Shown here: positions 1,587-22,000 of the stretch, in pieces
How positions within the stretch are numbered: position 1 is the stretch's first letter
Layout of the letters: each line of letters opens with the position of its first letter
NCBI GenBank assembly: GCA_963792965.1
Contig: CAWBYW010000022.1
Location: 1-27,427, forward strand
DNA from: an uncultured delta proteobacterium
Lineage (GTDB): Bacteria; Desulfobacterota; Zymogenia; Zymogenales; Zymogenaceae
Direction: 5' to 3'
DNA: 27,427 bases
Notes under the pieces: model-generated
Seen by the model: the letters and a program-made list of their open reading frames with translations, nothing else
What the model was told of the DNA's origin: nothing
Database searches by the model: none
Program-made: the position numbers and the translations under genes

Positions 1587-2030
1587 CTATTCGCCCTTCT
1601 TGATGATCAGGTTTTCCAGGCCCATCTCCTTGAGGATCACGGGAAACATCCCGAAGGCCGGACGCACCACGGGCAGAAGCTTCATCATCGCCGTGATCTT
1701 TCCGCCCTGCTTCACCTTCCCCTTGGTCACCGCCGATATCGGGTTCTCGTGCCCGTGCCAGAAGCTGTGGGAGAAGTCGGCCGCCTGCTTTGACCAGACG
1801 TCTTCCTTGAGCTCGCACGGGCCGAGGTAGTAGTTACCGTGCATGCCGGGCTTTTTCGGCGGGTTCTTGAGGTCGATGGTAATCTCGGAATCAGGATCGG
1901 TGTAGATGAACCTGATAACGATGCCGGCCTTGCTCATCTTCGGCCCAATCTTCGGGTCGCTGAGGATCCGCTCCATGAAGTATCCGTAGATCTTATAGAG
2001 ATCATCGGCGTCTTTATAATACTTTCCCAT
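1587..2030 (-). CDS. SCP2 (sterol carrier protein-2) fold lipid-binding protein
   Basis: ATG at 2030 with an AAGGAGG RBS; 147 aa. Pattern IRFIYTDPDSEITID...AADFSHSFWHGHENPISAVTKGKVKQGGKITAMMKLLP is typical of stand-alone SCP2 domains. Confidence 0.75.
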   Translation of the reverse strand: MGKYYKDADDLYKIYGYFMERILSDPKIGPKMSKAGIVIRFIYTDPDSEITIDLKNPPKKPGMHGNYYLGPCELKEDVWSKQAADFSHSFWHGHENPISAVTKGKVKQGGKITAMMKLLPVVRPAFGMFPVILKEMGLENLIIKKGE

Positions 2031-2132: not shown

Positions 2133-3299
2133 TTACTTCCCTTTTCTCTGGTCAAATCTCCTGCCGAACAGCAGGCTCGCCATCGTGATCCTCAGCATCT
2201 GTACGGTGCCGCCTGCGACCCGCCAGGCCATCGCGTCGCGCGCCATTCTTTCCGCCGGGAACTCGGTGGAATAGCCGTAGCCGCCGAAGATCTGCATCGC
2301 GCTGGTCGTCACATCGACGACCATCTCGTTGGCGAAGCACTTGCCCATCGCGGCCTCATAGATCGACGGGAAGCCCCGCCCTGCCCCGCACGCCGCCCGA
2401 TAGACTAAGAGCCTGGCCGCGTCGAGCTTCATCGCCATGTCGACGATCTTGAACTGCACGTCCTGGAACTCCGCGATCGGTCGCCCGAAGGCATGGCGCT
2501 CCTGGGCGTACGCCTTGGCCGCCTCGATGGCCCCGCCCGCCGTGCCGAGGCACATGGCGGCGTTGCCGCAGCGCTCCACGTCGAACGTGGACATGAGGTT
2601 GGCAAACTCCCCCTCCTTGATGATCAGGTTCTCCTTGGGAATTTTTACGTCCTCGAAGATGAGGTCGCAGGACGGCATCCCGTGGAGCCCCATGAACTGC
2701 TCCTGCTTTCCGAAGCTGAACCCGGGGGAGCCGTTTTCGACCAGGAGCCCGCCGATCCCCTTGTAGCCGGAGATATCCCCGAGCCGGCAATAGACCATAT
2801 AGTGGCTCGCGTGGCCGCCGCCGGTGATGAAGGTCTTTCGGCCGTTGAGGATGTAGTGGTCGCCCTCGGCCACCGCCTTCGTGGTCAGAGACGTGAGGTC
2901 GGAGCCGGCCTCCGGCTCCGTCATGCAGACGGAGACAGACCCTTCACCCTTGCAGACCCGGGAGACGATCTCCTTCTTTTGCTTTTCGGATCCGTACTTG
3001 TCGATGACCCTGACCGGCCCGACGTTGCTTTCAAAGACCGGTGCGGCAATCATCGGAGAGAATTTCGCCAGCTCCTCCACGGCAAGGACGGCGTTGAGGA
3101 CGGGCTGACCGCCGCCGCCGTTCTCTTCCGAGAGGGTCATCCCCAAGAGCCCCATCTCGGCGTACTTCGGGATGAGGTGATACGGAAATTCGCCGGTTGC
3201 GTCGATCTTCTTGGCCAGCTCCTTGAAGTTCTCGCGCTCTCCCATGGTCCTGAGGGTATCGACGAGCATCTTCTGTTCGTCGGTGAGATTGAAATCCAT
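2133..3299 (-). CDS. Acyl-CoA dehydrogenase family protein
   Basis: 388 aa with MTEPEAGSD, LNGRKTFITGG, ERHAFGRPIAEFQ and QIFGGYGYSTEFPAERMARD. Confidence 0.95.
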   Translation of the reverse strand: MDFNLTDEQKMLVDTLRTMGERENFKELAKKIDATGEFPYHLIPKYAEMGLLGMTLSEENGGGGQPVLNAVLAVEELAKFSPMIAAPVFESNVGPVRVIDKYGSEKQKKEIVSRVCKGEGSVSVCMTEPEAGSDLTSLTTKAVAEGDHYILNGRKTFITGGGHASHYMVYCRLGDISGYKGIGGLLVENGSPGFSFGKQEQFMGLHGMPSCDLIFEDVKIPKENLIIKEGEFANLMSTFDVERCGNAAMCLGTAGGAIEAAKAYAQERHAFGRPIAEFQDVQFKIVDMAMKLDAARLLVYRAACGAGRGFPSIYEAAMGKCFANEMVVDVTTSAMQIFGGYGYSTEFPAERMARDAMAWRVAGGTVQMLRITMASLLFGRRFDQRKGK

Positions 3300-3318: not shown

Positions 3319-4683
3319 TTAGATGAGTTTCGTTATCTCGGTCATGTCACTGACCGTTTCCAGCTTCAGGATTCGATCTATGAGAAGATCCACTTTCTTT
3401 TTATCGCGCGCGCCCGCGAATTGCCGCACCTTCTCTGCGACGTCCCGGGCCTCCATCGGATCGCGGGGGTCGCCCTTGGGGGTATCCACCTGTTTGGTGA
3501 GCTTTTGTCCGTCCTTGAGCGTGATCTGGACGCGGCTGGCGGTCTTGCCCGGGTAGAGCTTATTGAGCTCGTCGTCGTAGCTGATCGTCACTTTCTTCGT
3601 GAAGTCGATGAGGCTTTTGTCGGCAAGGCGTTTTTCCGTCAGCTGCGAGGGACCGAGCCGGCCGTCGGCAACGCATACCGACACGACGTACGGGATGGAA
3701 AATTGGGCGTTGACGAAGCTGTCGTTAAGCTTCACCTGTTTGCCGACGGCGATGACCGCGATCCCGTAGGTGAAGACCTCGACCTTTTCGACATCAGCGG
3801 GCTTGAATTTCTTTTCGGCAAGGAGGCCGAGCGTCGCCTGAGCCGAGCCGTGGGTGTGGCGGCAGGCAGTAAAGGGCTTGAAATAGATATCGAGGATCGT
3901 AAAATGCTCCCCGAGCTTGTCGGTTATCCGATCGAGGGCCGGGGGCTGGTCGGTCGTGATCTTACAGAATCCGCCGTTCAGCTGCGATCCCTCAAATACA
4001 TAGGGCATACCGGTGATGCCGCAAGCCGCGAGATACGCCGCCATGAGGCCGCTCTGGGCGGCCTTACCGCCCTGCACGACCTTGACGGTAAACCCGCCCA
4101 TGAGCTGTTCCGCCATGGAGAGAGGAAGCAGGTAGCCGGCATTGCCGAGGGCGCACAGCGTCTTCTCTTTGTCCAGGCCGATGAGCCGCGCGGCGGCGAT
4201 CGCCGCGCCGAACGTGCCGGTCGTGCCGGTGGGGAGAAAACCCGACAGGGTGTGCCGGGGATGGACCGCGGCGGCGGCGCGGTCTGCCGCCTCGTATCCC
4301 GCCGTGATCGCGGTGATGACGGCTTTGCCGTCCCTCTTGTTTTTCTCGGCAAGTCCCAGCGCCACCGGGATAACGGCCGTGCCGGGGTGGTTGCCGCCGA
4401 ACCGGAGGCCGTCCTGCGCCTCGATCGCCTCGGCGAGCACCCCGTTCATGAAGACGGCCTCGCTGATCGGCGCCGAAAAGCCGCAGCCGACGCACGTGAT
4501 GTCGCCCGGCCCGAGGGATTTGACCCAGTCGGCGACTTTCTTCACCGCGTCCAGCTCAAGCGACCCGTAGACGTTGGCGACGTAGTCCAGGACGCAGAGC
4601 TTGGCTTTCTCGACGACCTCGGCGGGAAGCCTGTCGTAGGTAAGGTCATGGCAGAAATCCGAAAGGAGCCTTGAGTATTCCAT
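3319..4683 (-). CDS. MmgE/PrpD family protein
   Basis: 454 aa with LPAEVVEKAKLCVLD, NGVLAEAIEAQDG..NHPG, AGYE, KPFTACRHTH, AQFSIPY and PKGDPRDP. Confidence 0.92.
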   Translation of the reverse strand: MEYSRLLSDFCHDLTYDRLPAEVVEKAKLCVLDYVANVYGSLELDAVKKVADWVKSLGPGDITCVGCGFSAPISEAVFMNGVLAEAIEAQDGLRFGGNHPGTAVIPVALGLAEKNKRDGKAVITAITAGYEAADRAAAAVHPRHTLSGFLPTGTTGTFGAAIAAARLIGLDKEKTLCALGNAGYLLPLSMAEQLMGGFTVKVVQGGKAAQSGLMAAYLAACGITGMPYVFEGSQLNGGFCKITTDQPPALDRITDKLGEHFTILDIYFKPFTACRHTHGSAQATLGLLAEKKFKPADVEKVEVFTYGIAVIAVGKQVKLNDSFVNAQFSIPYVVSVCVADGRLGPSQLTEKRLADKSLIDFTKKVTISYDDELNKLYPGKTASRVQITLKDGQKLTKQVDTPKGDPRDPMEARDVAEKVRQFAGARDKKKVDLLIDRILKLETVSDMTEITKLI

Positions 4684-4717: not shown

Positions 4718-5518
4718 TTAAACATACCCCCTCTTCTCATAGATCTTGATCATCCGGTGCGGATCGAGAACCTCGCGCAACACCCTGATCTCCTCGGCAC
4801 GCGGGGGCTCGGTCTCGTGAATGTCCTTGGAGACCTTCAGGTCCCACGGGGTGTTGGCCTTTATTTCCTCAACCGTGCTGCCGGGATGATAGGAAAAGAG
4901 GTAGGCCACCTTGGTCTCTTCGTCAAAGCGCATGATCGCCTTGTTGGTGACGATCACGGAGGGGCCGGTGCCCTTTGGCAGTCCCCATTTCTCCCGCGCC
5001 CCCGGGCCGTCGATGTATCCGGGCGTCGTGATGAAGTCGACCTTTTCGGAGAGCCTGCGCTTGTCGTGCAGCGCGATGATGAGGACGTGCTTCACGAGCG
5101 CCCCGATCGGGTTTGCCCCGCCGCTGCCGGGCAGCCGGCTCTTTGGGGCATGGTAGTCGCCGATGACGGTGGTGTTGACGTTGCCGTATTTATCCACCTG
5201 GGAGCCGGCCAAAAATCCGACGTCGACCCACCCCTTCTGGAGAAACATCCCCATGATGTCGGTGAGGCCGCCGACGAAGGCCGCTCCCGGGTTGAGGCAC
5301 GGGTCGCCCACCGAAAGCGCCGGCCTCCGCGGTCGGGCATCGTAGACGCCGGACTCCTGCATCATCCTGGCCCCCGGCGCGTGGGTATGCTTGGCGATAT
5401 TGGCCGACATCGTTGGGAAACCGGTGCCGACGATGACCACGTCGCCGTCCTTTATCTCGCGCGCGCCGCAGCACGCCATCAGCTCGGGTTTGATATAATC
5501 GTCGGGATGGGTAGGCAT
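4718..5518 (-). CDS. Family I CoA-transferase beta subunit (glutaconate CoA-transferase GctB-like)
   Basis: AREIKDGDVVIVGTGFP, QESG (putative catalytic Glu), QVDKYGNVNTTVIGDY, RLPGSGGAN, VDFITTPG. Confidence 0.92.
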   Translation of the reverse strand: MPTHPDDYIKPELMACCGAREIKDGDVVIVGTGFPTMSANIAKHTHAPGARMMQESGVYDARPRRPALSVGDPCLNPGAAFVGGLTDIMGMFLQKGWVDVGFLAGSQVDKYGNVNTTVIGDYHAPKSRLPGSGGANPIGALVKHVLIIALHDKRRLSEKVDFITTPGYIDGPGAREKWGLPKGTGPSVIVTNKAIMRFDEETKVAYLFSYHPGSTVEEIKANTPWDLKVSKDIHETEPPRAEEIRVLREVLDPHRMIKIYEKRGYV

Positions 5519-5723: not shown

Positions 5724-6659
5724 CTAATACTCGTAGCTGACAGGATAGCTGTAGCCGAACCGGGCCTGCAGGCGCCGAAACTGCGCCCATCCGAACTTCT
5801 TGATGTAGTGGTCGATATAGTCGGCCCGGTCCTTCGTGCCCAACACCCACTCGTCAACGAACTCCTTGAAGCCCTCCGGTGTGTCCGAGGCCTTCTGGTA
5901 GAGGGCCCCAAAGGCAAAATCGACGTCGTAGAAGCCCGGCGTATACCCCGGGTGCGACGCGAAGGGCTCCTCCACCACGGCGACCACCTTGAAGTCCGGC
6001 ACGATCGTCCGGGAAGGGTCAAGGCCGATCACCTCGCGGGAGACGATTCGCTCGGCGCTGACGATCACCTTTTTGCTCGCGTTTGCCCCCCATTTGCAGT
6101 CGCCGCCGATGCCCCAGATCTGGGCGTTCCCCTCTTCGTCGGCCTGCTGGACGTGGATGATCGCCACGTCGGGGACCAGCGCCGGCACCAGCAGCACCGG
6201 CGTCCCGTCAAAAGGGCTCTCGATCATCTTGTACTTGTTTTCCCCCATGAACGACTTGATGTTCAAGAGATCGGTGCCCACCATGTCCTTGACGGGGACA
6301 AAAGGCATCCCCATAGCGCCGGCCATGAGCATCATCGGCAGCGACAGGTTTGAGTATTCCTCCACCTCGATCTTGTGGGGGATCCCCTTCTCGATGGACC
6401 TGCGGTAGCAGCGCCCCAGCCCATAGATCCCGAGCGAGAGGAAAGTGGCGATGAATCGCTTGACACAGCCCGTCCCGATCAACATGTCAAAATCGTCGGC
6501 GGCGTTGCTCCGCGTGATCGTGAGGTCCTTCTTTCCCTGTCTGATGATCTCGTGCACGGCCGAGAAAGGGGTGCGGCAGATGTAGCCGCCGATAAAGAGA
6601 AAGTCGCCGTCCTTGACGTGCTGGGCGACGGCCTCCTTCATCGTGGTGAGCTTCGTCAT
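5724..6659 (-). CDS. Family I CoA-transferase alpha subunit (glutaconate CoA-transferase GctA-like)
   Basis: MKEAVAQHVKDGD, HEIIRQGKKDL, AGAMGMPFVP, PDVAIIHVQQADEEGNAQIWG, VIVSAERIV. Confidence 0.92.
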   Translation of the reverse strand: MTKLTTMKEAVAQHVKDGDFLFIGGYICRTPFSAVHEIIRQGKKDLTITRSNAADDFDMLIGTGCVKRFIATFLSLGIYGLGRCYRRSIEKGIPHKIEVEEYSNLSLPMMLMAGAMGMPFVPVKDMVGTDLLNIKSFMGENKYKMIESPFDGTPVLLVPALVPDVAIIHVQQADEEGNAQIWGIGGDCKWGANASKKVIVSAERIVSREVIGLDPSRTIVPDFKVVAVVEEPFASHPGYTPGFYDVDFAFGALYQKASDTPEGFKEFVDEWVLGTKDRADYIDHYIKKFGWAQFRRLQARFGYSYPVSYEY

Positions 6660-6725
6660 GGGTCAACCCGGTAAAAAATAGATCTGTCTTCTATTGTGCA
6701 GGCACACGTGAGGGTCGCCTGCACG

Positions 6726-9111
6726 CTAAATCTCGTACTCGGTGCGGCAGATGATCTCGTCCTGCGCAGTATCCGAAAGACCCGTGAAGAGGACGGAGTA
6801 GCCGCTGATTCTGACCACGAGGTCCTTGTATTTCTCCGGCTCCCTCTGGGCGGCGCGCAAGACGTCGGAATCGACCATGTTGAACTGGACCTGCATCCCC
6901 CCCTTGTCGAAGTAGGTCTTGATGAACGCGAGGAGGTTTTCCGGCCGGATCTTCTTGCCGGGGAACCGCAGGTTGAGGTTTGCGCCGTTGTGGAGGCGGA
7001 AAAGCGGAAGCTTGGTCACCGAGTTGATCACCGCGGTCGGGCCGGCTGTCGCGTTTCCGGTGGTCGGGGTCAGTCCGTTTCCCAGGATGTCGCCGGACGA
7101 CCGGCCGTCGGGTGTCGCGGCGGTGAAGGCGCCGATGGCGATGTGGAAGCCCACCGAGAAGATGCCCGGCCAGTAAGAGCCGCCCCGGTAGTTCTTATGT
7201 TTCGCAAGCTCGTCGCAGTAGTTGTCCACGACCCACCCGGCCATTTCGTCCACGTCGTCGATATCGTTTCCGTACTTGGGAACCCGAGTCAGGAAATAGG
7301 CGCGCTTGTCCTCGGCGTCCGTCCAATCGTCGGCAAGGTGCGCGGCAAGCTCGCCATGGTCATGACCTTCTCGTCGAAGACCGTCTTCTTGACGGCGTAG
7401 AGGCTGTCGGCGACATTGGCAAAGCCCATGAACTGTACGCCGGTGGAGTTATAGACCGCCCCGCCCTCGGTGGCGTCCATCCCTTTGTCGAGCAGCCGTC
7501 GATCATCGCCGAGGCAAAGGGCGACGGCGCAAGCTCGGCCACCGCCTGATCCATACAGGTCATGCCCCGCGCCATCTGCCCGATGAAGTGGGACAGCTGG
7601 GCGCTGTAGGCCTTCTTCACATCTTCGAATGTCGTGAATTTCTCGGGGTCGCCGGTCTCGGGGCCCGACTTGATAGCCGAAGGTGTTGTCGATGCCGTTT
7701 GACAGCGCAAGCTCCAGGCACTTGATCCCGTTGAACTGCACCGCGAAGGTGGAGCCGTAGGTCTTTCCCTGGGCGTTGGGCTCAAGACACCCGACCACCC
7801 CGTAGTTGCGGGCGTCGCTTATCGTGTGGCCGCCGGAAGTCAGGGCCTTGACGATCGCCTCATCGTTGAAGAAGTGCATCAGCACTCCCTCTTTGGCGTA
7901 CGTCACCGCCCGCATGAAGAAATCACGGGGGCTCTTTTCGCTGATCCTGACGCCGAAGTTGGGCTGGACCGTCCGAATGTCGGCATAGGCGTCGAGTCCG
8001 ATGTACTGACATCTCGGTGACGGCATCGTTTCCCTTCTCATCGATGCCGCCCACGACGACGTTCTGGGTGGTCTTGCCCTCCGTGCCCTCTCCGCCGGGG
8101 ATGAAGGCCTCCTCCAGCACGTTCCAGATCTCGCAGGTCTTGAGGAAGAGCAGCGAGAGGAGCTCCTTGGCCGCGTCATAGGTGATCGTGCCGGCCTTTT
8201 TGTCCGCCGCATAGTAGGGGTCGAGGATTTTGTCGATGCGCCCCAGCGAGATGGAGTTCCCCCCCGACTCGATCTGTGAGATCAGGTGGATGAAATAGAC
8301 GGACTGGACGGCCTCATGGTACGTGCGGGCGGGATGCTCCGGGACGTGGGAGCAGACCCGGGCGATATTGAGGAGCTCGGCCTTGCGTACGGCATCTTTT
8401 TCTTTTTCGGCCATCGTCTGGGCAACCCACGCGTAGCGGTTTGCAAAACGCACCGCCGCCTCAAGGCTTCTGATGACCGCCTCGTAGAAGAGGCCCTTCT
8501 TGCCCTGTCTTTATCCGACGCCGAGCAGCGCCGCAAGCTTGCCACGCGTTTCATCGATGATACCCCTGCAGCCCAACCCTGAGCACCCTGTCGTGATCCA
8601 TCGTGAAGTGCCCGACGCCGTAGGTGATCTCGAGCATCATCGTGAAGATATACTTATCCATGTCGTCGGACACGTCGGGGGGCAGAAGCTCCATCAACCT
8701 CTCCTCGACCGTCTTACCGTTCCAGAACGGGAGGATGTCCCGGGCGAGCTCTTCCTTCTCCGCCTCGGTGATGAGCGCCCGCTGGAGGACCCGCTCGTTG
8801 AAGCCTTCCAGGTCTCCCTCGATCCATTTGGACTTGTTTTCGGGGAAGAGCGGCGCCCCCTTCTTCTTCTCGGTCCTCGTGCCCACGATGAGCTCGCCCT
8901 CCCGGATGACGACGCTGATGCTGTCGAGGATATCCGACAGGGCCATGCTCATGCGCACGACGGCGGGCTTGTCCCAGTTTTGCTTCATCGACCGCGTGAG
9001 GAACCGTGCCCGCTCGATGCTCACTTCCTGGGGGGCGTCGATGATCGCTTCCCTCAATCTCCAGACACGCCTGCCGGCGTTTTTTTGTGCCTGCGCCTCT
9101 TGGGACAACAT
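6726..9111 (-). CDS. Glycyl radical enzyme (PFL2/glycerol dehydratase-like eliminase family), ~795 aa, interrupted by about 7 single-base indels
   Basis: ATG at 9111 with a GAGGAGG RBS. Collinear fragments: SIERARFLT..IREGELIVG; YGVGHF; PARTYHEAVQS..QIESGGNSISLGRID; QNVVVGG; VVGCLEP (Cys codon 7787-7789); NVADSLYAVKK; PKYGND; ATPDGR; QVQFN; LVVRISGYS (Gly codon 6801-6803). Frame changes near 8563, 8525, 8503, 8010, 7670, 7492 and 7353. Confidence 0.92.
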
Positions 9112-9174
9112 GGTCGTCCTCCTCTCTAAAAGCCTTCTCACTCGTCGGATAAATGCCGACAATACTTATATACT

Positions 9175-9203
9175 ATTATCCCACCTACAGAAACGGTTTT
9201 CAA
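9175..9203 (-). promoter_or_regulatory. Putative internal sigma70 promoter upstream of the GRE
   Basis: Minus strand TTGAAA (9203-9198), 17-nt spacer, GATAAT (9180-9175), in an AT-rich gap 63 bp before the GRE ATG. Confidence 0.55.
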
Positions 9204-9208
9204 GCGAT

Positions 9209-10039
9209 TTATACCCGTATCTTCATGTAGCTCTCGAGGATGAAATCCTTGACCCGCATCGGCAGGAAGCGGTTAAGCTTCAAAAGGAAGGCGTCCGCAA
9301 AGAGGATCTGGTTGAAGAACTTCGGATGCTCCTTTTCGACGATTTTCACGATCGTCTTGGCGGCCGCTTCAGGTGTCGGCGCGCTCTTGATGAGCTCATT
9401 GTCCCGATCGATGAAGCGCTTGACCCGGTCGCGGTAGGGTGATCCGTCGGGCGGCAGCTTGTGGATCTTGGCGGCAAAGGTCGTTGCCACCTGGGCGGGC
9501 TCGATGATCGCCACCCTGATCCCGAAGGGCTTTACCTCATACTTGAGCGACTCGACAAAACCGGAGATGGCAAACTTGGATGCGGTGTAAATGGACTCGA
9601 AGGGAAAGGGAACGCGGCCCACGAGCGACGACATGGCGATCAGTCTTCCCTTCTTCACCTTACGCATCGACGGGATGAAAGCCTGAAAGATTGCCATAGC
9701 GCCGATGACATTGATCTCGAGGCACTTGAGGGCCTTTTCGAGGTCGATCTCCTCAAACGGGCCGAAGAAGCCGATGCCCACGTTGGAAAGCACGATGTCG
9801 ACTGTGCCGTATTTTTTTAGGACATCGTCGCGGAATTTGAGTATACCTTTTCGGTCGGTAATGTCCATCGCGGTGAGGTGGTGATCACCACCGATTGTGG
9901 AGAGCTCTTTCTTGAGCGACTCGATGCCCGCCTTATTGACGTCGAAGCCCGCGATCGCGTAGCCTTTCTTGGCGAGGATCAGGGCAACTTCCCGGCCCAT
10001 CCCTTCGCCGAGGCCGGTAATGACGATGGTCTTTTTCAT
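9209..10039 (-). CDS. Classical short-chain dehydrogenase/reductase (SDR)
   Basis: TGLGEGMG (TGxxxGxG), acidic residue after beta2 (GFD, suggests NAD), SNVG, catalytic S and YTASK, IEPAQVAT. Confidence 0.92.
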   Translation of the reverse strand: MKKTIVITGLGEGMGREVALILAKKGYAIAGFDVNKAGIESLKKELSTIGGDHHLTAMDITDRKGILKFRDDVLKKYGTVDIVLSNVGIGFFGPFEEIDLEKALKCLEINVIGAMAIFQAFIPSMRKVKKGRLIAMSSLVGRVPFPFESIYTASKFAISGFVESLKYEVKPFGIRVAIIEPAQVATTFAAKIHKLPPDGSPYRDRVKRFIDRDNELIKSAPTPEAAAKTIVKIVEKEHPKFFNQILFADAFLLKLNRFLPMRVKDFILESYMKIRV

Positions 10040-10153: not shown

Positions 10154-11149
10154 TCATCGTATCTCCAGTTTCCCCTCCCGATAGAGTCTCCCGATCTCTT
10201 CCATCGATTTTGTGAAGTCGGGGTAAAGAAGGGTGAAGCCGGTTTTCTTGAGCTTCGCGTTATCCACCACATAATCGTCGTAGAGGTAGCGAACCGCGTC
10301 GTACTCGAGGTCAGGGATCTTCCCCCTCGATGCCGAGACCCATCCGTCAAGGCGGGCGGCAATCTTGACGAGCCACAGCGGGAGATGAAGCGAAGGCCGC
10401 TTACCGGTAAACGCGAGCGCCGCGAGGGTCAGCGCCTCCCCCACGGTGGGGTTTGAATCGTCGGCGATATTATAGGCCTCCCCACTGATCCCGTCGATCG
10501 TCGACAGGTGCGCTACCGCCCGGGCCACGTCCTCGGCCCTGATATTGGCAAGGAGCCGTTTTCCGTCGCCCGGGATCGCGGCGATCGAGGTCGGCCGGGA
10601 GAAGGCCTTTCCCGCTCCGTCGGTGCATCGCGGTCCGTAGACCGTACAGGGCCGCAACAATACGGCGTTGAGGCCCTTTTCGATCGCCTTTTTGAGCATG
10701 TCTTCCCCGTCCCGCTTGCTCCTCCCGTAGTTGTCCTGGGGTTCCCTCGGCGAGTCCTCGCGAAAGGGGGTGCCCCGATAGGGACCATAGACGCTCGTCG
10801 AGGTCACATGGACGAAGCGTTTAACCCCGGCCTTGAGCGCCTCGTCGGTGATCAGCTTTACGCCAAGGACGTTTGTGGGATAGAGTTTTTCGTAGGGCGT
10901 TGAGAAGTTACAGATTGCCCCCAGGTGAATAACCCGGTCGACCCCGCCGGAAAAGAGGGGTGGTACGGTCTCGGGCCTGGTCAGATCGGCGGCCTGGTAC
11001 TGGACTCCGAGGCGATCGAAAAATGACGTGTCCTTTCGGGGTCGGGCGGTGGCCCGGACGGTGACACCCGACTTCGCCAGGTGCTCGACCACGTGGCTCC
11101 CCATGAATCCCGCGGCCCCCGTTACGAGTGTTATCCCTGAAAACTTCAT
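10154..11149 (-). CDS. Extended SDR, NAD(P)-dependent epimerase/dehydratase or 3-beta-HSD-like
   Basis: TGAAGFMG, HLGA, TNVLG, TSTSVYG, YGRSK, LRPCTVYGP. Confidence 0.9.
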   Translation of the reverse strand: MKFSGITLVTGAAGFMGSHVVEHLAKSGVTVRATARPRKDTSFFDRLGVQYQAADLTRPETVPPLFSGGVDRVIHLGAICNFSTPYEKLYPTNVLGVKLITDEALKAGVKRFVHVTSTSVYGPYRGTPFREDSPREPQDNYGRSKRDGEDMLKKAIEKGLNAVLLRPCTVYGPRCTDGAGKAFSRPTSIAAIPGDGKRLLANIRAEDVARAVAHLSTIDGISGEAYNIADDSNPTVGEALTLAALAFTGKRPSLHLPLWLVKIAARLDGWVSASRGKIPDLEYDAVRYLYDDYVVDNAKLKKTGFTLLYPDFTKSMEEIGRLYREGKLEIR

Positions 11150-11195: not shown

Positions 11196-11744
11196 TCAGA
11201 CGACCGTTTTCTTTCTTACCGCCGGGACTTCCGCCTCTATCTCCTGTTTCGCCTTGACAAGCCATTCGAGCATCCCCTCGTTGAGCGATATCCCAAGCTC
11301 TCTCATGAGCCGCGCGTAGACGGTTTCATTTTGGTTCACCTCGTAGCGCTCCTGCCTCTTCCTGAGCACCTGTCGATAGCTGTCGATCTGGGCTTCGATG
11401 ATCTCGAGCGCCTTCTCTTTATCGCCGAACGAGAAAAATATGAACTTCAGCAGGAAGGGGTCACGGATGAGCATATCACGCTCGGGTGCGGACTGGAGCC
11501 ACTCGGAAAAGGCTTCCCTCCCCTTGTCGGTGATGGAATAGAGCTTTCTGTCGGGCGCGTTCTTTTGGGCCACGTCTCTCTTCGTGACGAGTCCATCCTG
11601 TTCGAGCCTTTTTAGGGTCGGATAGATCTGGCCGAAGTTGATGGACCACATGAACCCGAAGTCATTTTCGATGATCTCCTTGAGGCGGTAGCCGTGCATG
11701 TCTTTATAGTGAAGCAGCCCCAGAATGGCGTATTTGACGGACAT
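11196..11744 (-). CDS. PadR/AphA family transcriptional regulator
   Basis: KYAILGLL..MHGYRLK..GQIYPTLKRLE..PDRKLYSITDKGR..EWL, plus a C-terminal RDPFLLK helical domain. Confidence 0.95.
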   Translation of the reverse strand: MSVKYAILGLLHYKDMHGYRLKEIIENDFGFMWSINFGQIYPTLKRLEQDGLVTKRDVAQKNAPDRKLYSITDKGREAFSEWLQSAPERDMLIRDPFLLKFIFFSFGDKEKALEIIEAQIDSYRQVLRKRQERYEVNQNETVYARLMRELGISLNEGMLEWLVKAKQEIEAEVPAVRKKTVV

Positions 11745-11894: not shown

Positions 11895-12126
11895 GAAATT
11901 TTTGGCAAGAGGCATATGAAATCTATGGCGATGGCGGCGCCTGCCCGCGAGAACCAATGCGGTTTTCTCTTCCTCTTTCAGGGCCGTGCCCACGCCGCCG
12001 CAAGCCCCGGCAGGAAAAGCCACGTCGTGGATAGATTTATGTTGTAACGGCCGGACTTATCTGTTATAGATTATGCCGTCATCACGAGAAGCTGTGAAGC
12101 GTAGACTTTTTTCAGGGAGATTTCCA

Positions 12127-12744
12127 ATGCCACTGAAAGAAAAGATACCCAATCAGATGCTCCACATGGTCCTGTTAACCCTCGATGAGGTCATGGGAAC
12201 AAACGCGGTTAAGTCGATCCTCAACTTCGCGCATCTCCAAAAATTTATAGACAATTACCCGCCGAGTGATTTCAACGATGAGCATTACGTCCTGGACTTT
12301 ACCCGACTGATTGGAGGAATCATCGATCTCGTCGGTGAGCGCGGCGCGCGGGCTATCATGTTCCGCGGGGGCGTGAGGGGATTTGAAATCACGCTTGAGC
12401 AGTTCCCGTCGCTCGTGAATATTGAAGGCATTAAACCCGAGGAAAGAACCGACGAGAGGATGTTTGACGAGTTTCAGCGGATTTATGGGATTATAGTCCA
12501 GTCGGGGGTTTCCATCTTCGGAGACGTCTACAAGTATTACCCGTGCGAAGAAGGGGTTGCGCTGGAGATCTCGCCCTGCTACTTCTGCGTCGGTCTCAAG
12601 GCGCAGGACCCGATATGCAACGCTCAGCTCGGCTACCAGTTCGGAATCGGGCGCTGGATTCTCGGCAAAGAAATCAAGGTCGAGGAAACCCACTGTATTG
12701 CGAAGGGCGACCCGATGTGCCGATTCGTCATGCACCGGCCCTGA
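12127..12744 (+). CDS. Stand-alone V4R (4-vinyl reductase-like) domain protein
   Basis: ATG at 12127 after GGGAGA. SPCYFC..PICNAQLG..VEETHCIAKGDPMCRF is the V4R signature. Confidence 0.85.
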   Translation: MPLKEKIPNQMLHMVLLTLDEVMGTNAVKSILNFAHLQKFIDNYPPSDFNDEHYVLDFTRLIGGIIDLVGERGARAIMFRGGVRGFEITLEQFPSLVNIEGIKPEERTDERMFDEFQRIYGIIVQSGVSIFGDVYKYYPCEEGVALEISPCYFCVGLKAQDPICNAQLGYQFGIGRWILGKEIKVEETHCIAKGDPMCRFVMHRP

Positions 12745-12977
12745 TACGCGAGGAGCCCCGAAAAATCGATGCGCCGTCTTCACAACCGGCGCCCGTCGGG
12801 TACCGTTTTAGCCGCCCCTTTCGATTGATTCTTCCCGGAGTCCCCCACGGATATTCTTCTTACCCACACCGTCGGTATAAAAGAAGGGATCCAGAGACCC
12901 CGGCGACCACATGAACCAGGCCCGCCCCGAGATCCGAAACCGGACTGAGTCGAGGGAGGACGCTTAATACCGCCCCA

Positions 12978-13006
12978 TTGACAAGACAACCGATCAAGCA
13001 TATACT
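12978..13006 (+). promoter_or_regulatory. sigma70 promoter
   Basis: TTGACA (12978-12983), 17-nt spacer, TATACT (13001-13006). Confidence 0.75.
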
Positions 13007-13102
13007 ATTATTAAGAAGAGTATGCGTCTTTTCCGACGCAAATCAAAGAGTGGCGCTATTCATTGGATTTGAGGATAGGGAAAGGATAAAAGCGGAATAT
13101 CG

Positions 13103-13303
13103 ATGGGAATAATATTAGTGATACTCCTGGCCCTGATCGGCTGGGTCATTTATCGCTATCTGTCTCAGGGCAGGCTTGAGATCCTGAGATCCGAGATTCC
13201 CGGATCGAAGGAAACCCCCGAGGACATCCTGGACAGGAGACTCGCCGAGGGGAAGATCAACCAAGAGGAATACGGACACATCCGACGGACCCTCCACTCG
13301 TGA
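13103..13303 (+). CDS. Small membrane protein with SHOCT domain
   Basis: N-terminal TM helix, then PEDILDRRLAEGKINQEEY. Confidence 0.8.
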   Translation: MGIILVILLALIGWVIYRYLSQGRLEILRSEIPGSKETPEDILDRRLAEGKINQEEYGHIRRTLHS

Positions 13304-13350
13304 AATTGAGAGCGGAGGGCCGGTCGGCTCGCTGGTGATGGAGGAAGACG

Positions 13351-13659
13351 ATGTTTGAGACACTGATGCAATCGGCAACCTATTTCCTGCCGGCGCTGCG
13401 CTGGTGGGGGGGTGGCTACTACGGCGGCCCGGGATACGGCATGATGGGGTGGTATTCACCCTTCTGGATGATCCTCCACGGGCTGTTCTGGATTGTCGTG
13501 CTCGTCGTGATTATCTGGGCGATCGTGCGACTGACGAGAAGCAAGACAATGGCCCATACCGGGACGCCATTGGATATTCTCAAGCGGAGGCTCGCGTCGG
13601 GCGAGATATCTGCTGAGGAGTTTGCGAAGATCAAGAAGACCCTCGACGATAAGAAGTAA
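13351..13659 (+). CDS. Membrane protein with SHOCT domain and a Gly/Met-rich N-terminus
   Basis: GGAGG RBS; GPGYGMMGW, a TM helix, then PLDILKRRLASGEISAEEFAKIK. Confidence 0.85.
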   Translation: MFETLMQSATYFLPALRWWGGGYYGGPGYGMMGWYSPFWMILHGLFWIVVLVVIIWAIVRLTRSKTMAHTGTPLDILKRRLASGEISAEEFAKIKKTLDDKK

Positions 13660-13797
13660 CCGAGGGAATCTTTTTGGATTTTCACACATCCTGACGTGAA
13701 AGAAAGGATAACGCTGGATAATATACCCAGATCAGCCCTTTGACGGCAGTTGATTCTTGCTCAAGAATAACCATGAAACAAGAGAGAGGTGATAACC

Positions 13798-14193
13798 ATG
13801 AAGACAAGACTGACGTTTGCGGCCGTCCTGATGATGGCGGTTATCGCGTACGCGGCACTGCCCGCGCTGTCGGCCGAAACCCCGAAACCGTTCGTCGCCG
13901 ACCCCAAGGCAAAAGAAGTAACCATCGACATGAAGGCGTATAAGTATGCGTACGACCCCGGCGACATCACCGTGTACGAGGGACAGAAGATTACGCTCGT
14001 CATCACGGCCACCGACAGGGAGCACGGCTTCAAGCTCGACGCCTTTAACCTCAACACGAAGCTGCCGCAGGGAGTGCCCATCACGCTTACGTTTGTCGCC
14101 GACAAGGTCGGTGAGTTTCCCTTTAAGTGCACGGTCTTTTGCGGAATGGGCCACTTCAATATGAAGGGGACCCTCAAGGTCGTTAAACCATAA
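13798..14193 (+). CDS. Exported cupredoxin with a CuA-type copper site
   Basis: Signal peptide ending ALSA; DREHGF...FKCTVFCGMGHFNM (H..CxxxCxxxHxxM). Confidence 0.88.
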   Translation: MKTRLTFAAVLMMAVIAYAALPALSAETPKPFVADPKAKEVTIDMKAYKYAYDPGDITVYEGQKITLVITATDREHGFKLDAFNLNTKLPQGVPITLTFVADKVGEFPFKCTVFCGMGHFNMKGTLKVVKP

Positions 14194-14224
14194 AGCGACA
14201 AGATTTCAAGAAATACTCATTATC

Positions 14225-14260
14225 AAGGAGATTTCGACCTTTCGAAATCTCCTTTCTCTT
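14225..14260 (+). terminator. Intrinsic terminator
   Basis: AAGGAGATTTCGA-CCTT-TCGAAATCTCCTT, a 13-bp stem with a pyrimidine tail, after the cupredoxin gene. Confidence 0.7.
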
Positions 14261-14467
14261 ATCCAGGGTCATCCCGAACGACGTAGCGCAATCAAGAAAA
14301 CCGTGGTATAAATAGAAAGAAATACCGCGTGTCCAGTTGTCCGGCCGGACGAGCTTTTTGAAGCTGTCGGTTCATCGTGTTCTTCATTTTCTCCCTGAGA
14401 GTTCGGACGAGCGGTTTCCTTTACTTGTCTCGGCTCGATTCTATTACCCTGAGGAGGACCGTCATGA

Positions 14468-14950
14468 ATGCCAGGACGAAGATCGCGTCCACCATTGTTG
14501 CCCGTTGTTTTTTTGTGTATCGTCGCCCTCCTTGTTTCGCTGGTCCTTGCGCAATCGTGCGGGGCGCAGCACTATTCATCCAACGGAGAAAGAATCTATA
14601 CTACCGGCATTAACGACCAGGGCCAGCGTATTCCTTTCTACGGGGGCCCCATGTGGCTTTCCGCGCACGGCGGCAGCTGCGTGAACTGCCACGGTCCCGA
14701 GGGCCGCGGCGGCACGCCGGTCATGATGCTTCAGGTAATTCCCGCCGATATCCGTTACGATTCGCTGATCTCCGGGAAATATGACCCGAGCGGAGAGGCG
14801 GGGACCCCGTATACGGATGAACTGATCGTCCGGGCGATCCGAGAGGGGATCGACCCTGACGGTAAGCCTCTTTACCAGGGGATGCCGCGCTGGCAGATGA
14901 CCGATAAAGACGTCCATGACGTCATCGACTACTTGAAGCAGCTCAAGTAG
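14468..14950 (+). CDS. Monoheme c-type cytochrome, probable lipoprotein
   Basis: Hydrophobic signal with LAQSC; CVNCH; distal Met in GMPRW. GAGGAGG RBS at 14451-14457. An alternative start at 14464 would require an indel near 14500. Confidence 0.88.
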   Translation: MPGRRSRPPLLPVVFLCIVALLVSLVLAQSCGAQHYSSNGERIYTTGINDQGQRIPFYGGPMWLSAHGGSCVNCHGPEGRGGTPVMMLQVIPADIRYDSLISGKYDPSGEAGTPYTDELIVRAIREGIDPDGKPLYQGMPRWQMTDKDVHDVIDYLKQLK

Positions 14951-15026
14951 CGGGGAACACCGACCCGCGCGCGCGGGGGCGACACGCCCCCGCCATTTCC
15001 GCGAGCCGGGGATATGAGGCAGACTC

Positions 15027-15161
15027 ATGGGCGATGATCTGTTTCGGGCGGTCGCCGTCGTCGTCATTCTCTACGCCGTCTATCACGTCGCAACGCTCGT
15101 CCGAAACGTCATCCGCGAGTCCCGCAAACGGAGAAAGAACAAGCCGCCCCGTGATGCGTAG
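15027..15161 (+). CDS. 44-aa single-pass membrane protein (below the length cutoff of the ORF track)
   Basis: GAGG shortly before the ATG; MGDDLFRAVAVVVILYAVYHVATLVRNVIRESRKRRKNKPPRDA; third codon positions are mostly G/C as in neighbouring genes. Confidence 0.55.
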   Translation: MGDDLFRAVAVVVILYAVYHVATLVRNVIRESRKRRKNKPPRDA

Positions 15162-15491
15162 ACCGAGCACGCCGAGCATCGGCGTCGAGATGCGGCGACG
15201 GGTGCGGCGGTAGCGACGGGGGAACGCTCGCCCGGCCTCCGTGCGCGCTTGGCGTGACCTCATCGTCTCTCGTCCAGGGAGGAGACCGGGTCCGTCAATT
15301 CCCTTCTCTGTGCCGGCTCCACCCGTCCCGGTCGAATCGCGACAGCCGATTTCTATCCCACGGCCTTTACACGGCCGTTTTTTTGTGATACGGTTTCAAG
15401 GACTATCACGCAACGGCGCCTCAGAGCTGGCTCATCGGCGCCGTCTTCAGACAATACTCAACCACTCACATACTCGCGGAGGTAAAGCAAA

Positions 15492-16607
15492 GTGAAATCG
15501 CGAAAGATATGGACCTTCCTGTGTGTCTTCATCATCATTGCCTGCATGGGAAGCTATTCCTGCACGAAGAAAAAAGGAACGACCGGTAAGACATCGGAGG
15601 GGGCCGTGCCGGGAGAAACGCTCAAAAGCCCGGTCTTTGCCGTTGAGCCGAAGTTTGATGACTGCCTCCCCTTTTCCGAGGGGATGGCAGGGGTCTTCAT
15701 GGACGGTAGGTGGGGATTTGTCGACAAGACGGGAGCGACGATCGTGGCGCCCGCGTACAGCGAGGTGGCCTCGTTCAGTGACGGTATGGCCCCGGTGGAA
15801 GTCGAAAGCAAGTGGGGGTTCATCGACAAAACGGGAGCGGTCGTTATCCGGCCTCAATTCATCTATCCCTATCGGGCCGGCGGCCCTCCCTATATGTTTT
15901 CGGAGGGGCTGGCCGCGGTATATAAAACAGGGATGTGGGGATACATGGACAAGTCCGGGAACTTTGTCATCAAACCCCAGTTTGACGTCGCCGGACCTTT
16001 TATCGGGGGGCTCGCCCACGTGGAGACAGGAGATAAAACCCTTTTCATAGACAAGACGGGAAAGACCGTTATCTCCGTGAAATGCACGTGGGCGCTCCGC
16101 TTTTCGGAGGGACTTGCGGCGATCAACGTAAACGATAAGATCGGCTTCATCGACAAGACCGGGAAGGTGGTCATCGCCCCGACATACGACGCCAAATACG
16201 AGGACGTGGTCGTGCCGCCGGTCTTCTCCGAAGGGCTTGCCCCGGTGAAGGTGGAAAAGAAATTCGGGTATATAAACCCGAAGGCAAAACTTGTCATTGA
16301 AGCGAAGTATGATTTTGCCGGTCCCTTCTCGGAAGGCCTGGCCCCGGTAATGCCGGACAAGAACAAGCCGAGTATCGGGTTCATCGATAAGACCGGAAAG
16401 ATGGTCATCGAACCGGCGTTTACCGATGGCGGAACCTTCATGGAGGGGCTGGCCGCGGTAAAGACGAACGAGAAATGGGGATTCATCGACAAGACGGGCC
16501 GGACGGTCATCGAGCCTCAGTTCGACTGGGCCTGGAACTTCTCCGAGGGGCTGGCACAGGTAAAAGTGGACCGGAAGTGGGGCTATATCAAAAATCCACT
16601 GAAGTAG
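15492..16607 (+). CDS. WG-repeat (WG_beta_rep/KWG-type) lipoprotein
   Basis: GGAGG RBS, GTG start, lipobox-like SYSC; about 7-8 repeats of FSEGLAxV...WGFIDKTGxxVIxPxF. Confidence 0.92.
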   Translation: MKSRKIWTFLCVFIIIACMGSYSCTKKKGTTGKTSEGAVPGETLKSPVFAVEPKFDDCLPFSEGMAGVFMDGRWGFVDKTGATIVAPAYSEVASFSDGMAPVEVESKWGFIDKTGAVVIRPQFIYPYRAGGPPYMFSEGLAAVYKTGMWGYMDKSGNFVIKPQFDVAGPFIGGLAHVETGDKTLFIDKTGKTVISVKCTWALRFSEGLAAINVNDKIGFIDKTGKVVIAPTYDAKYEDVVVPPVFSEGLAPVKVEKKFGYINPKAKLVIEAKYDFAGPFSEGLAPVMPDKNKPSIGFIDKTGKMVIEPAFTDGGTFMEGLAAVKTNEKWGFIDKTGRTVIEPQFDWAWNFSEGLAQVKVDRKWGYIKNPLK

Positions 16608-19710: not shown

Positions 19711-20400
19711 ATGTACTGGCACCTGATACCCGTCCCAATGGTCCTTCTGGCTATCTATCTCTACGTCGTCGCCCGCTCCAAGAACGACCTGAGGCGGGTG
19801 GCGGTCGTCCAGCCGCTGGCCACGATCCTCATCATCGTGGTCTGTGCGCTCTCCCTGTTGTCTTCCCGCGCGGTGCCCGGTTTTACCGTCTGGATCCTTG
19901 TGGGGCTCGTCCTTTCGCTGATCGGTGACTTCCTCAACGTCGACATGACCGATCAGAAGACGGTCATGGTGGGCCTTATCATCTTCGTGTTCGCCTACCT
20001 CGTCTACCCCATCGGCGTGACCGTCTATAACGGATTTCATACCGCGGATATCATCGTGACGATCTTCTTCCTGATCTATCTTGTAGTCTTCATTGCATAT
20101 CTCTGGCCGGGCCTGGGCTCGATGAAGGTCCCGGTGATCATATACGGCGCGGTCCTCTGCTTCATGGTGAGCCGGGCGGTCTCGACTTTTTTCGGCGGCG
20201 TCTTCTCCACGGCTCAGGCCGTGCTTTTGACCGCGGGCACCGGGATGATATTCGTGGGCGACTCCCTGTTTGCCCTCGAGACGTACAAGAAGCCCGCCCC
20301 GCCCCCTCTCGTCATGAGGCTCAAGGTGATCGGCCCCCTCCTCTATGCGGGGGGTCAGCTCCTCATCGGCCTTTCCCCTTCTTATTTCCCGGGGAATTAG
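19711..20400 (+). CDS. YhhN/lysoplasmalogenase family membrane protein
   Basis: About 8 TM helices; GLVLSLIGDFL, MKVPVIIYGAVL, GMIFVGDSL, LYAGGQLLI. Confidence 0.8.
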   Translation: MYWHLIPVPMVLLAIYLYVVARSKNDLRRVAVVQPLATILIIVVCALSLLSSRAVPGFTVWILVGLVLSLIGDFLNVDMTDQKTVMVGLIIFVFAYLVYPIGVTVYNGFHTADIIVTIFFLIYLVVFIAYLWPGLGSMKVPVIIYGAVLCFMVSRAVSTFFGGVFSTAQAVLLTAGTGMIFVGDSLFALETYKKPAPPPLVMRLKVIGPLLYAGGQLLIGLSPSYFPGN

Positions 20401-20481
20401 GCGGATGCGAAAGCCGCGCCGGCGGCGGGTTTGAGAATGCTCGTACTCGGTTGGATCTCTGGAACAGTGCGGAGGGACACA

Positions 20482-22000
20482 ATGACACAGACGGACGAAA
20501 AGGCCCATAAATCGATCGCCGTATTCGATGTCGGCAAGACCAACAAGAAGCTGATTGTCTTCAACCACCGCCTCGAGCTTATCGACGCGGTATACCACAC
20601 ATTCAATGAGTATGAAAAGGACGGGGTATACATCGAGGCCGTCGAGGAGGCCGCCGAGTGGCTGCGGGTATCGCTCAGGGAGATGGCCGCCCGCCACGAC
20701 ATCGGCGCTATCTCGATCTGCACCCACGGGGCGGCCTTTGCCTGCATTGACGCGGACGGCAGGCTCGCCGTTCCCCTCCTCTCCTACACCACCGATCCCG
20801 GTGAGCTGTTTAACAAGAGATTTGCGGCCGATTTCGGCGACCCGATAACGTTGCAGAGGGAGACGAAGACCCCCAATATGGTCGGCCTCGGCTGCATGGC
20901 CAAGGGGATCAGGTTCGCGCAGGAACGGTGGCCGGAGGCGTTCAAAAATACGGCCGCGATTCTGGCGCTGCCTCAATACTACGGATTTCTGCTGACCGGG
21001 AACAAAGCGATCGACCCGACCAACGTCGGGTGCCACACGGCCTTCTGGAACTTCGAGAAGAACGACTGGTCGCCTGTTATCACAAAAATGGGCATACGCT
21101 CCCTCTTCCCCCGGTCGATATCGGCGCCGTGGGATGTCCTGGGGACGATCACGCCCGACCTCGCGCAGAGGACAGGGCTTTCCGGGGACACGGTGGTCAC
21201 CGTCGGCATCCACGACTCCAACGCGTCGCTCCTTCCGTATCTCGTCAAGGAAACCGGCGCCTTCGTCGTCAACTCCACGGGGACCGTCTCGGTATCCCTC
21301 TGCCCGACGAAAGACACCGCCCTTACCGAAGAAGAGCTCGGCAAGATCGTCTACTATAACCTCTCCGCATTCAAGACGCCGGTAAAGACGGCGATCTTCC
21401 TGGGCGGGATGGAGTTCGACACCTACCTCGGGCTCCTCACGTCGGTCCACGGCGCACAAGGCGCACCCTGCGCTCGATCCCGCCCTCATCGAGGAGGTCC
21501 TGACCGAAAAGCGCTGCTTTGTCCTGCCGTCCTTTATCCCGTTTGGGATGTTCCCGGATTCCCCCGCCCGGATCATCGAGGGCGACACGGTGATACCGAT
21601 GGGCGAGCTCTTCGGCGGCACGCACCCCGACTTCTTCAAAGACTTCACAAAGGCCTACACGATCCTCGTGCTCTCGGCTGCCCTGCAGGCCGAGGTCGCG
21701 CTGAGGGCCGTGGGGCTGAAGGACGGGATGCAGCTATTCATCGAGGGGGGGTTTGCGAAAAACGAGATCTACACGAATCTTGTCGCCGCCCTCTTTCCGA
21801 AACTGGTGACGGCCACGACCGGATTTGAGGAGGCCACCGCATTCGGGACCGCGCTCCTCGGCAAAGCCGCGCTTGATAAGGTAAATCCGAAACAGCTCTC
21901 AAGCCTCTTTGAGATCGAGACCCGCCCGGTCCCCGCGCGAAAGTTCAAGGGGCTGGCGGCGTATCGGGACGAGTTCCTGAGGCTGGTGGGGGGGAAATAG
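20482..22000 (+). CDS. FGGY-family carbohydrate kinase; frameshift near 21455
   Basis: VFDVGKTNKK, CTHGA, VGCHT, GIHDSNASL, NSTGT; a +1 shift joins ORF 21548-22000 (EGGF, EATAFGTALLG). Confidence 0.88.

Follow-up and report, generated by a model that had tools for sequence, protein, structure and literature searches.

We analysed a 27,427-nucleotide stretch of DNA (the window: contig CAWBYW010000022.1 of assembly GCA_963792965.1, from an uncultured delta proteobacterium of the family Zymogenaceae) whose minus strand carries a gene for a glycyl radical enzyme (GRE) within an operon. The GRE gene runs from 9111 down to 6726 and comprises about 794 codons after frame correction. It opens with an ATG at 9111–9109, six bases 3′ of a ribosome-binding site (GGAGG, 9118..9122), and closes with a stop codon at 6728–6726. 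As assembled it is read in three frames: residues 1–183 come from 9111–8563, residues 179–367 from 8576–8007, residues 368 to about 479 from 8005 onwards, a short stretch from about 7670–7494, residues about 542–586 from a piece running down to about 7357, and residues 585–793 from 7355–6729. A sequence-only reading of this DNA had named seven motifs and both gene ends, and we recovered all of them in the minus-strand translations of 6700–9200: YGVGHF, QIESGGNSISLGRID, FIPGGEGTEGKTTQNVVVGG, VVGCLEP, GKTYGSTFAVQFN, PGIFSVGFH and RISGYS, spread over the three frames.

Pfam detected PFL-like (PF02901) and Gly_radical (PF01228) domains in the window fragments. The protein has the layout of the GRE superfamily, with a PFL-like barrel ahead of the glycyl radical domain at the C-terminus, and its fold matches GREs over the whole length. 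Both the glycine loop RISGYS and the catalytic cysteine in VVGCLEP are present. Residue mapping and NCBIfam scoring were done on an intact orthologue, P0001, which shares 82.6% identity with the window protein after frame correction. The cysteine loop reads G-C-L-E, with a single cysteine; two adjacent cysteines on this loop mark pyruvate formate-lyase (PFL) proper in the available text of PMC13450708. The sequence-only reading had taken a single cysteine to exclude a true PFL. The NCBIfam score for PFL is 153 against a cut-off of 994.

The gene belongs to a large and conserved clade of these oxygen-sensitive enzymes. A search with the middle GRE fragment returned 718 proteins, the best 120 of which are 68–83% identical and mostly 793 aa long. 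We aligned 51 clade sequences (alignment A1) and extended them with 77 orthologues translated from genome loci to 128 rows, 114 of them distinct, with pairwise identities of 62–95% (median 68%). R766, G769, Y770 and C440 of the two catalytic loops each occur in 128/128 rows. When one genome per species was scanned, 221 genomes were found to encode a clade relative. The best 80 of these are all metagenome-assembled and carry the labels Thermodesulfobacteriota (Syntrophales, Smithella, Desulfobacterales and others), Spirochaetota, Chloroflexota, Actinomycetota and others.

We compared the clade with characterised GREs by sequence and by structure. In HMMER comparisons with PDB chains, glycerol dehydratase (GD; 1r8w) scored highest at 585 bits, followed by propanediol dehydratases (517–521), PflD (8yjo, 440), HplG (379), YbiW (376), BSS (278) and MASS (257). 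GD was also the best Foldseek match of the GRE model (TM 0.92, 39% identity), ahead of three 1,2-propanediol dehydratase entries at 34–37%. P0001 barely passed the generic PFL2/glycerol dehydratase subfamily TIGR01774 (678.7 versus a cut-off of 678.2), and fell below every function-specific NCBIfam cut-off: HpfG (567/1000), HpsG (483/1000), HypD (511/1100), CutC (464/1050), IAD (383/1100), HPAD (291/1150) and PRK09983 (517/1109), in addition to PFL. A protein atlas look-up of P0001 gave generic GRE names only, and a full-text literature search found nothing on the clade or its operon; a limonene paper (PMC12583861), by its available text, concerns a fumarate-adding enzyme. Within the literature and databases searched, the clade is uncharacterised.

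The strand opposite the GRE is itself open, for 786–818 codons in intact orthologues (L021:7987-10347 on the minus strand and L022:9832-12288 on the plus strand), and the window has plus-strand open stretches opposite the gene at 6696–7400 and 8500–9129. This opposite-strand frame exceeds the GRE gene in length, with G+C-rich codon usage as the probable cause.

Active-site pocket of the clade

Residues were mapped by HMMER alignment of P0001 to the GD chain 1r8w, with numbers counted along the chain, and the mapping to GD that the sequence-only reading had drawn proved correct. Four residues of GD are kept: His164 as H168, Ser282 as S285, Cys433 as C440 and Glu435 as E442. Around them His281 has become N284, Asp447 F454 and Tyr640 F650, and there are further changes at W445-H446 (S452-T453), F450 (Q457), Q636 (W646), I644 (F654), N645 (H655) and N279 (G282). 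The loop that carries Tyr339 in GD is two residues longer in the clade and reads G-G-E-G-T-E-G-K-T-T-Q-N, so that Y339 aligns with T347 behind the insertion (GGEGTEGKTTQN). We take His281, Asp447, Tyr339 and Tyr640 of GD to hold the third hydroxyl of glycerol. The segments that match GD 279–282, 336–341, 445–450 and 636–645 are thus replaced by another set, invariant across the clade, and the pocket residues that GD and the propanediol dehydratases have in common (ES[NS]GHS, G-W-H-D, the G-Y loop and Tyr640) are all replaced.

These positions are strictly conserved. H168, N284, S285, E340, K345, T346, T347, Q348, C440 and E442, as well as S452, T453, F454, A455, Q457, F650, V652, F654, H655 and G769, each occur in 128/128 rows and in the window, and alignment A1 has 206 invariant columns that include every clade-specific pocket residue. 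The window equals P0001 at all 63 motif and pocket positions compared. Because the pocket substitutions, including the Asn, the two Phe and the Lys singled out earlier, are invariant in all 128 clade rows, we conclude that they are not sequencing errors. An AlphaFold model of the GRE has a mean pLDDT of 82.3, with values below 50 at 161–166, 332–347, 651–686 and 768–770, which are the pocket loops.

The catalytic core is of the eliminase type, as the sequence-only reading had it, with a single cysteine, a CXE motif (C440-L-E442), a histidine (H168) that aligns with the general acid His164 of GD, and a glycyl motif. Section 5.6.1 of PMC13450708 assigns Cys433, Glu435 as the base and His164 as the acid in GD, and section 5.6 describes CXE as kept by all C–O eliminases among GREs. 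The shared glycyl loop, Cys433, Glu435, His164 and Ser282 suggest that the clade probably uses the same radical dehydration machinery as GD. Its pocket is unlike that of every characterised GRE tested. Several polar groups are lost from the pocket segments and aromatics are gained, in agreement with the more hydrophobic pocket proposed earlier. That proposal holds only in part, since an invariant Lys, His, Gln and Asn and several Ser/Thr are gained as well (N284, K345, T346, T347, S452, T453, Q457 and H655).

Origin of the frameshifts

The assembled GRE gene has no uninterrupted coding frame. We placed its lesions, five frameshifts and one in-frame stop, by aligning its DNA with that of four intact orthologues (793 codons each) of the same bacterial family; a tblastn search with an intact orthologue likewise needs three frames. 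The base at 8569 is extra with respect to 4/4 intact orthologues, and a 98%-identical environmental contig (X3 record 21) lacks it. A TAA lies within a 3-base insertion in a variable loop (8511..8513). Further extra bases lie at 8007..8009 (about 8009; not found in X1 record 5, a contig of 96.5% identity) and, by the orthologue alignment, at 7671, a site outside the coverage of the environmental contigs. Two sites lack a base: 7491..7493 (about 7493), where a 99%-identical contig (X3 record 20) and X1 record 4 both have it, and 7355..7356 (about 7356), where X1 record 3 and X3 record 19 do. Contigs from three public metagenome runs thus cover 4/5 indel sites and have the frame-restoring state at all four; two of them, 98–99% identical, lack the indels at both sites covered.

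We also sampled frameshifts across the genome, using 124 proteins of one clean related contig, 66 of which have an orthologue in the window genome. Ten of the 66 orthologue pairs are split (about 15%), with 12 frame changes in 69 kb and affected genes of unrelated functions. Of the 11 gaps of non-triplet length in nine split genes, 9 are +1 insertions that lie outside homopolymers; three of the GRE's five indels are of this kind. The corrected GRE differs at 1/206 invariant and 4/360 near-invariant columns; intact orthologues differ there at a median of 10 (range 1–25).

We conclude that the five frameshifts and the TAA are most probably consensus errors of the assembly, and that the organism probably keeps an intact gene. 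The genome-wide frameshifts, the intact near-identical contigs, the undisturbed conserved residues and the good GGAGG and ATG all favour this reading. It would be wrong if the gene were a true and very recent pseudogene, the radical enzyme having been lost while the rest of the operon was kept, and several observations point that way. The gene has six disabling lesions in 2.39 kb, and its five frameshifts compare with 0.41 predicted from the genome-wide rate (P = 7e-5). The eight flanking operon genes (7.1 kb) are free of frameshifts, each full length in one frame; none of the indels falls within a long homopolymer; and the 88.85%-complete assembly has no second clade copy. Among the public runs searched for source reads, none contained more than 8% of the sampled words, and no RNA run was listed. 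Neutral decay long enough for five indels should also change many conserved residues, so the single mismatch at the 206 invariant columns, a conservation at least equal to that of intact orthologues, counts against a pseudogene. So do the contigs without the indels and the like insertions that split other genes, and we consider decay unlikely. Frameshifts as dense as these, the case suggests, can arise in assembly and need not mark a pseudogene.

Genes called on this assembly will come out in fragments across the whole genome. Examples of split genes in the window genome (G000) lie at C7:618855-620511, C7:688749-692212 and C13:164118-165111. Within the window, an FGGY-family sugar kinase on the plus strand (about 20362–21997) is split by an extra base between about 21446 and 21558.

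Operon and predicted SCP2-fold partner

The GRE is the fourth of nine genes, all on the minus strand. At the head of the operon is a PadR-family regulator (11196..11744), followed by an extended short-chain dehydrogenase/reductase (SDR) of the NAD-dependent epimerase/dehydratase family (10154..11149) and a classical SDR (9209..10039), assigned by Pfam. Behind the GRE come subunit A of a CoA-transferase of the glutaconate CoA-transferase type (5724..6659; 182.5 bits to 1poi) and, by Pfam, subunit B (4718..5518), then an MmgE/PrpD-family protein (3319..4683) whose nearest solved relatives are IDS epimerase and cis-aconitate decarboxylase, an acyl-CoA dehydrogenase of the butyryl-CoA dehydrogenase type (2133..3299; Pfam and similarity), and a 147-aa protein (1587..2030). 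Each gene from the regulator to the acyl-CoA dehydrogenase, apart from the GRE, is intact.

The window shares this order, ending in a 145–150-aa protein, with 80 loci of other genomes (L030–L109), many of which are ended by contig edges. Among the 80, we found the PadR gene in 53, the epimerase-family gene in 61, the SDR in 69, CoA-transferase subunits A and B in 66 and 57, PrpD in 51, and the acyl-CoA dehydrogenase and the gene for the small protein in 49 each. A gene for aldehyde:ferredoxin oxidoreductase (AOR) follows in 17/80 loci and one for an aldehyde dehydrogenase (ALDH) is inserted in 10/80, so that 24/80 have one or the other; a lactonase-like SMP-30/arylesterase gene is present in 7/80. 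The operon is unusually alike across phyla: the GRE stands at 64–71%, and in metagenome-assembled genomes labelled Spirochaetota, Chloroflexota and Actinomycetota the CoA-transferase subunits are 74–83% identical to those of the window. Such high similarity suggests horizontal transfer of the complete operon. A search of the 88.85%-complete genome for bacterial microcompartment shell genes (PF00936) gave no match, and the conserved neighbours include no such gene either.

The window genome has five GRE loci (contigs C6, C9, C13 and C22) and one TIGR02494 activase above cut-off, which lies on C6 beside another GRE. Related genomes have 3–7 GRE C-terminal matches each, and the five of them checked for activases have 1–2 each, all beside other GRE paralogues. 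With more GRE loci than activases, one activase may serve several GREs.

Behind the operon, on the minus strand at 727–1543 and 2–584, are two tandem copies of a gene for a Cys-rich Fe–S protein of about 274 aa, which resembles QueG weakly and falls into no Pfam family. Both copies are frameshifted once (between 1442–1470 and between 342–379, respectively), and the second runs off the contig end. This gene stands behind the operon in this bacterial family only (5/80 loci). We considered it as a candidate activase and rejected it, given its lack of a radical-SAM Pfam match, its weak QueG match only and its presence in 5/80 loci. On the other side, between the operon and a GAPDH gene, 12001–16000 shows a drop in G+C to 0.53–0.56 with positive GC and AT skew, and holds a V4R-domain protein and a cytochrome c. 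No tRNA and no Rfam family was found within the window.

The 147-aa protein at the end of the operon is a predicted partner of the GRE, on the basis of its predicted fold, its co-occurrence and a complex prediction. It is up to 93% identical between genera. Its gene is present in 32 of the 34 loci flanked by at least 6 kb upstream and at least 8 kb downstream, and its orthologues occur in the same 11/41 related genomes as the clade GRE and in 0/30 of the others; these 11 genomes represent at least two separate lineages, and related genomes are not independent samples. The top matches of its predicted structure (pLDDT 80.5) are all SCP2 folds (E 4.5e-6 to 1e-4), including UbiJ and the lipid-binding domain of an alkylsulfatase, and its language-model features also match SCP2 folds.

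The complex of the GRE and the SCP2-fold protein was predicted with an ipSAE of 0.64, the best of three controls reaching 0.00. The 0.64 mark was reached by 58/80 solved complexes and 2/110 mismatched pairs, counts that hold roughly here because our own alignments were used. At least 83% of contacts agreed between prediction runs, with a partner pLDDT of at least 85. The predicted contacts on the GRE include 333–340 and 656–672, from clade-specific loops with a monomer pLDDT below 50, and 778–780 in the glycyl radical domain. The SCP2-fold protein is thus predicted to dock on the GRE, in a way that resembles BSS-beta and MASS-beta, which are described as covering the substrate channel (PMC13450708, section 4.2).

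In three clusters with 11 member sequences (P0121–P0123), an N-terminal SCP2-like domain (residues 1–145, 67–68% identical) is fused to an aldehyde dehydrogenase, which ties the SCP2-like domain to an aldehyde step. No fusion of a GRE with SCP2 was found among the longer proteins. A paralogous 997-aa GRE (G000:C13:158280-161271, split by an extra base in G000; orthologue in G002 at L124:4328-7321) has an N-terminal extension of about 200 aa. By eye this extension was a candidate SCP2-like domain; it had no Pfam match and an hhalign probability of 0.09% against the SCP2-like profile, and we rejected it.

Proposed function and nearest known enzymes

We propose, with somewhat better than even confidence, that the gene encodes the catalytic subunit of a GRE of this clade, a new C–O-cleaving 1,2-eliminase that would make an aldehyde from a probably amphipathic alcohol. 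An aldehyde-forming lyase or dehydratase is favoured because an AOR or ALDH gene accompanies 24/80 loci and because of the SCP2-like::ALDH fusion. In the mechanism that we envisage, an activase encoded elsewhere in the genome would install the glycyl radical, and a thiyl radical on Cys440 would abstract hydrogen from the carbinol carbon. Glu442 would take the hydroxyl proton while His168 protonates the neighbouring oxygen leaving group, a hydroxyl or alkoxy, and the product radical would regain hydrogen to give the aldehyde. The SCP2-fold protein may dock at the barrel mouth and carry a poorly soluble substrate or the aldehyde, which AOR or an aldehyde dehydrogenase could oxidize to the acid. 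Entry of this acid into CoA-ester metabolism would then fall to the glutaconate-type CoA-transferase and the butyryl-CoA-type dehydrogenase. For the substrate we would guess at an amphipathic molecule larger than glycerol: a vicinal diol, a hydroxy-ether or a hydroxy-acid. The observation made by the sequence-only reading is confirmed and its interpretation partly supported: the operon favours the lyase or dehydratase it proposed, with the reservation on the pocket given above.

A more far-reaching version, which we put forward tentatively and think rather doubtful, is a two-component GRE eliminase of a new kind. Its remodelled pocket might accept a substrate used by no known GRE, perhaps a lipid-like diol, a glyceryl ether or an amino alcohol; a metal-free SCP2-fold subunit on the clade-specific barrel-mouth loops might hand a hydrophobic aldehyde to AOR; the activase might be borrowed from another GRE locus; and the nine-gene operon might have spread horizontally among anaerobes of at least six phyla.

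Several findings weigh against the eliminase proposal or parts of it. AOR or ALDH genes accompany just those 24 of the 80 loci, and neither is among the window open reading frames scanned with Pfam. The glutaconate-type CoA-transferase, the PrpD-like protein and the Bcd-type acyl-CoA dehydrogenase point to short dicarboxylic or C3–C6 acids, and so fit poorly with the lipid-like substrate that an SCP2 carrier implies. A canonical activase lies within 10 kb of the clade GRE in 3/80 loci. By sequence, SCP2 is barely seen in the partner (Pfam, 2/33 members at E ≥ 0.22; PDB profile, E 0.22). The predicted interface is as conserved as the rest of the protein in the GRE (mean 0.77 versus 0.77) and slightly more so in the partner (0.88 versus 0.82).

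The CXE motif and the histidine would also suit a GRE isomerase of the YbiW, PflD or HplG kind, which would open a ring by C–O or C–N cleavage next to the carbinol with no net elimination. CXE alone is no proof of elimination, because GRE isomerases also keep it, with the Glu bound to the substrate hydroxyl (PMC13450708, section 5.7), and the SMP-30/arylesterase gene in some loci hints at cyclic precursors. PflD, YbiW and HplG are, however, less similar to the clade than GD and the propanediol dehydratases by the HMMER scores above, and the link to AOR and ALDH genes suits an aldehyde product better than a ketone. We regard an isomerase as improbable. It seems more improbable still that this is a glycerol or 1,2-propanediol dehydratase whose pocket has drifted. 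These enzymes are the closest solved relatives and have the same catalytic Cys, Glu, His and Ser, but the motifs ES[NS]GHS, G-W-H-D, the G-Y loop and [LI]-Y-P-[SV]-S-[IA]-N are all replaced, and the replacements are invariant in 128 rows spanning many phyla; the operon is without the usual 1,3-propanediol or propanol partners, and no microcompartment shell gene was found in the window genome.

We give just as little weight to the idea that a hydrophobic substrate is decarboxylated, by an enzyme of the HPAD, IAD or PhdB type, or added to fumarate. Decarboxylases also carry Cys-x-Glu. Aromatics are present in the pocket segments, where F454, F650 and F654 are invariant and W646 nearly so, and the record titles place the organisms in groups known for hydrocarbon and aromatic degradation. 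Against this, the scores are much lower, for IAD and HPAD far below the NCBIfam cut-offs and for BSS and MASS at the low end of the HMMER comparison, and no genes for HiPIP-like small subunits were found among the conserved neighbours. An aldehyde-forming eliminase remains our preferred assignment.

To our knowledge, every new assignment of a GRE has until now brought to light an anaerobic pathway that matters more widely, as for choline, hydroxyproline, isethionate and anhydro-sugars. Found in sediments, wetlands and digesters, in genomes of at least 221 species, and with an invariant active-site signature, the clade is a well-defined target for enzyme discovery, and its fixed operon names the likely downstream chemistry. 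If its predicted lipid-carrier partner is real, it would be the first GRE accessory subunit that is not an iron protein. Section 4.2 of PMC13450708 describes the known accessory subunits as HiPIP-like or rubredoxin-like iron proteins, in HPAD, BSS and MASS only, and the available text of that paper lists no SCP2 protein acting with a GRE.

The closest known system is the B12-independent GD of Clostridium butyricum (1r8w/1r9d), which the clade resembles in fold from end to end and in its glycyl loop, Cys433, Glu435, His164 and Ser282. Unlike GD, the clade has Asn for H281, S-T-F for W445-H446-D447, Phe for Y640, His for N645 and Gly for N279, and its longer Tyr339 loop holds an invariant Glu and Lys. 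Its operon also differs, with the activase adjacent in 3/80 loci and an SCP2-fold partner predicted. The 1,2-propanediol dehydratases (5i2a/5i2g; 9rco–9rcr) share 34–37% identity and the same core residues with the clade, whereas their ESSGHS, G-W-H-D-A and G-Y motifs are not found in it, nor, in the window genome, is a shell gene. As in BSS, MASS and HPAD, the catalytic subunit would have a small companion protein, predicted to bind at the barrel-mouth loops and the glycyl radical domain. Unlike the iron-protein subunits of those enzymes, this predicted binding partner has the fold of an SCP2 lipid carrier and one conserved Cys. The sequence similarity of the 147-aa protein to SCP2-domain lipid carriers is marginal, whereas its predicted fold is like that of the SCP2-like domains of human SCP2 and MFE-2, of UbiJ and of the C-terminal domain of alkylsulfatase.

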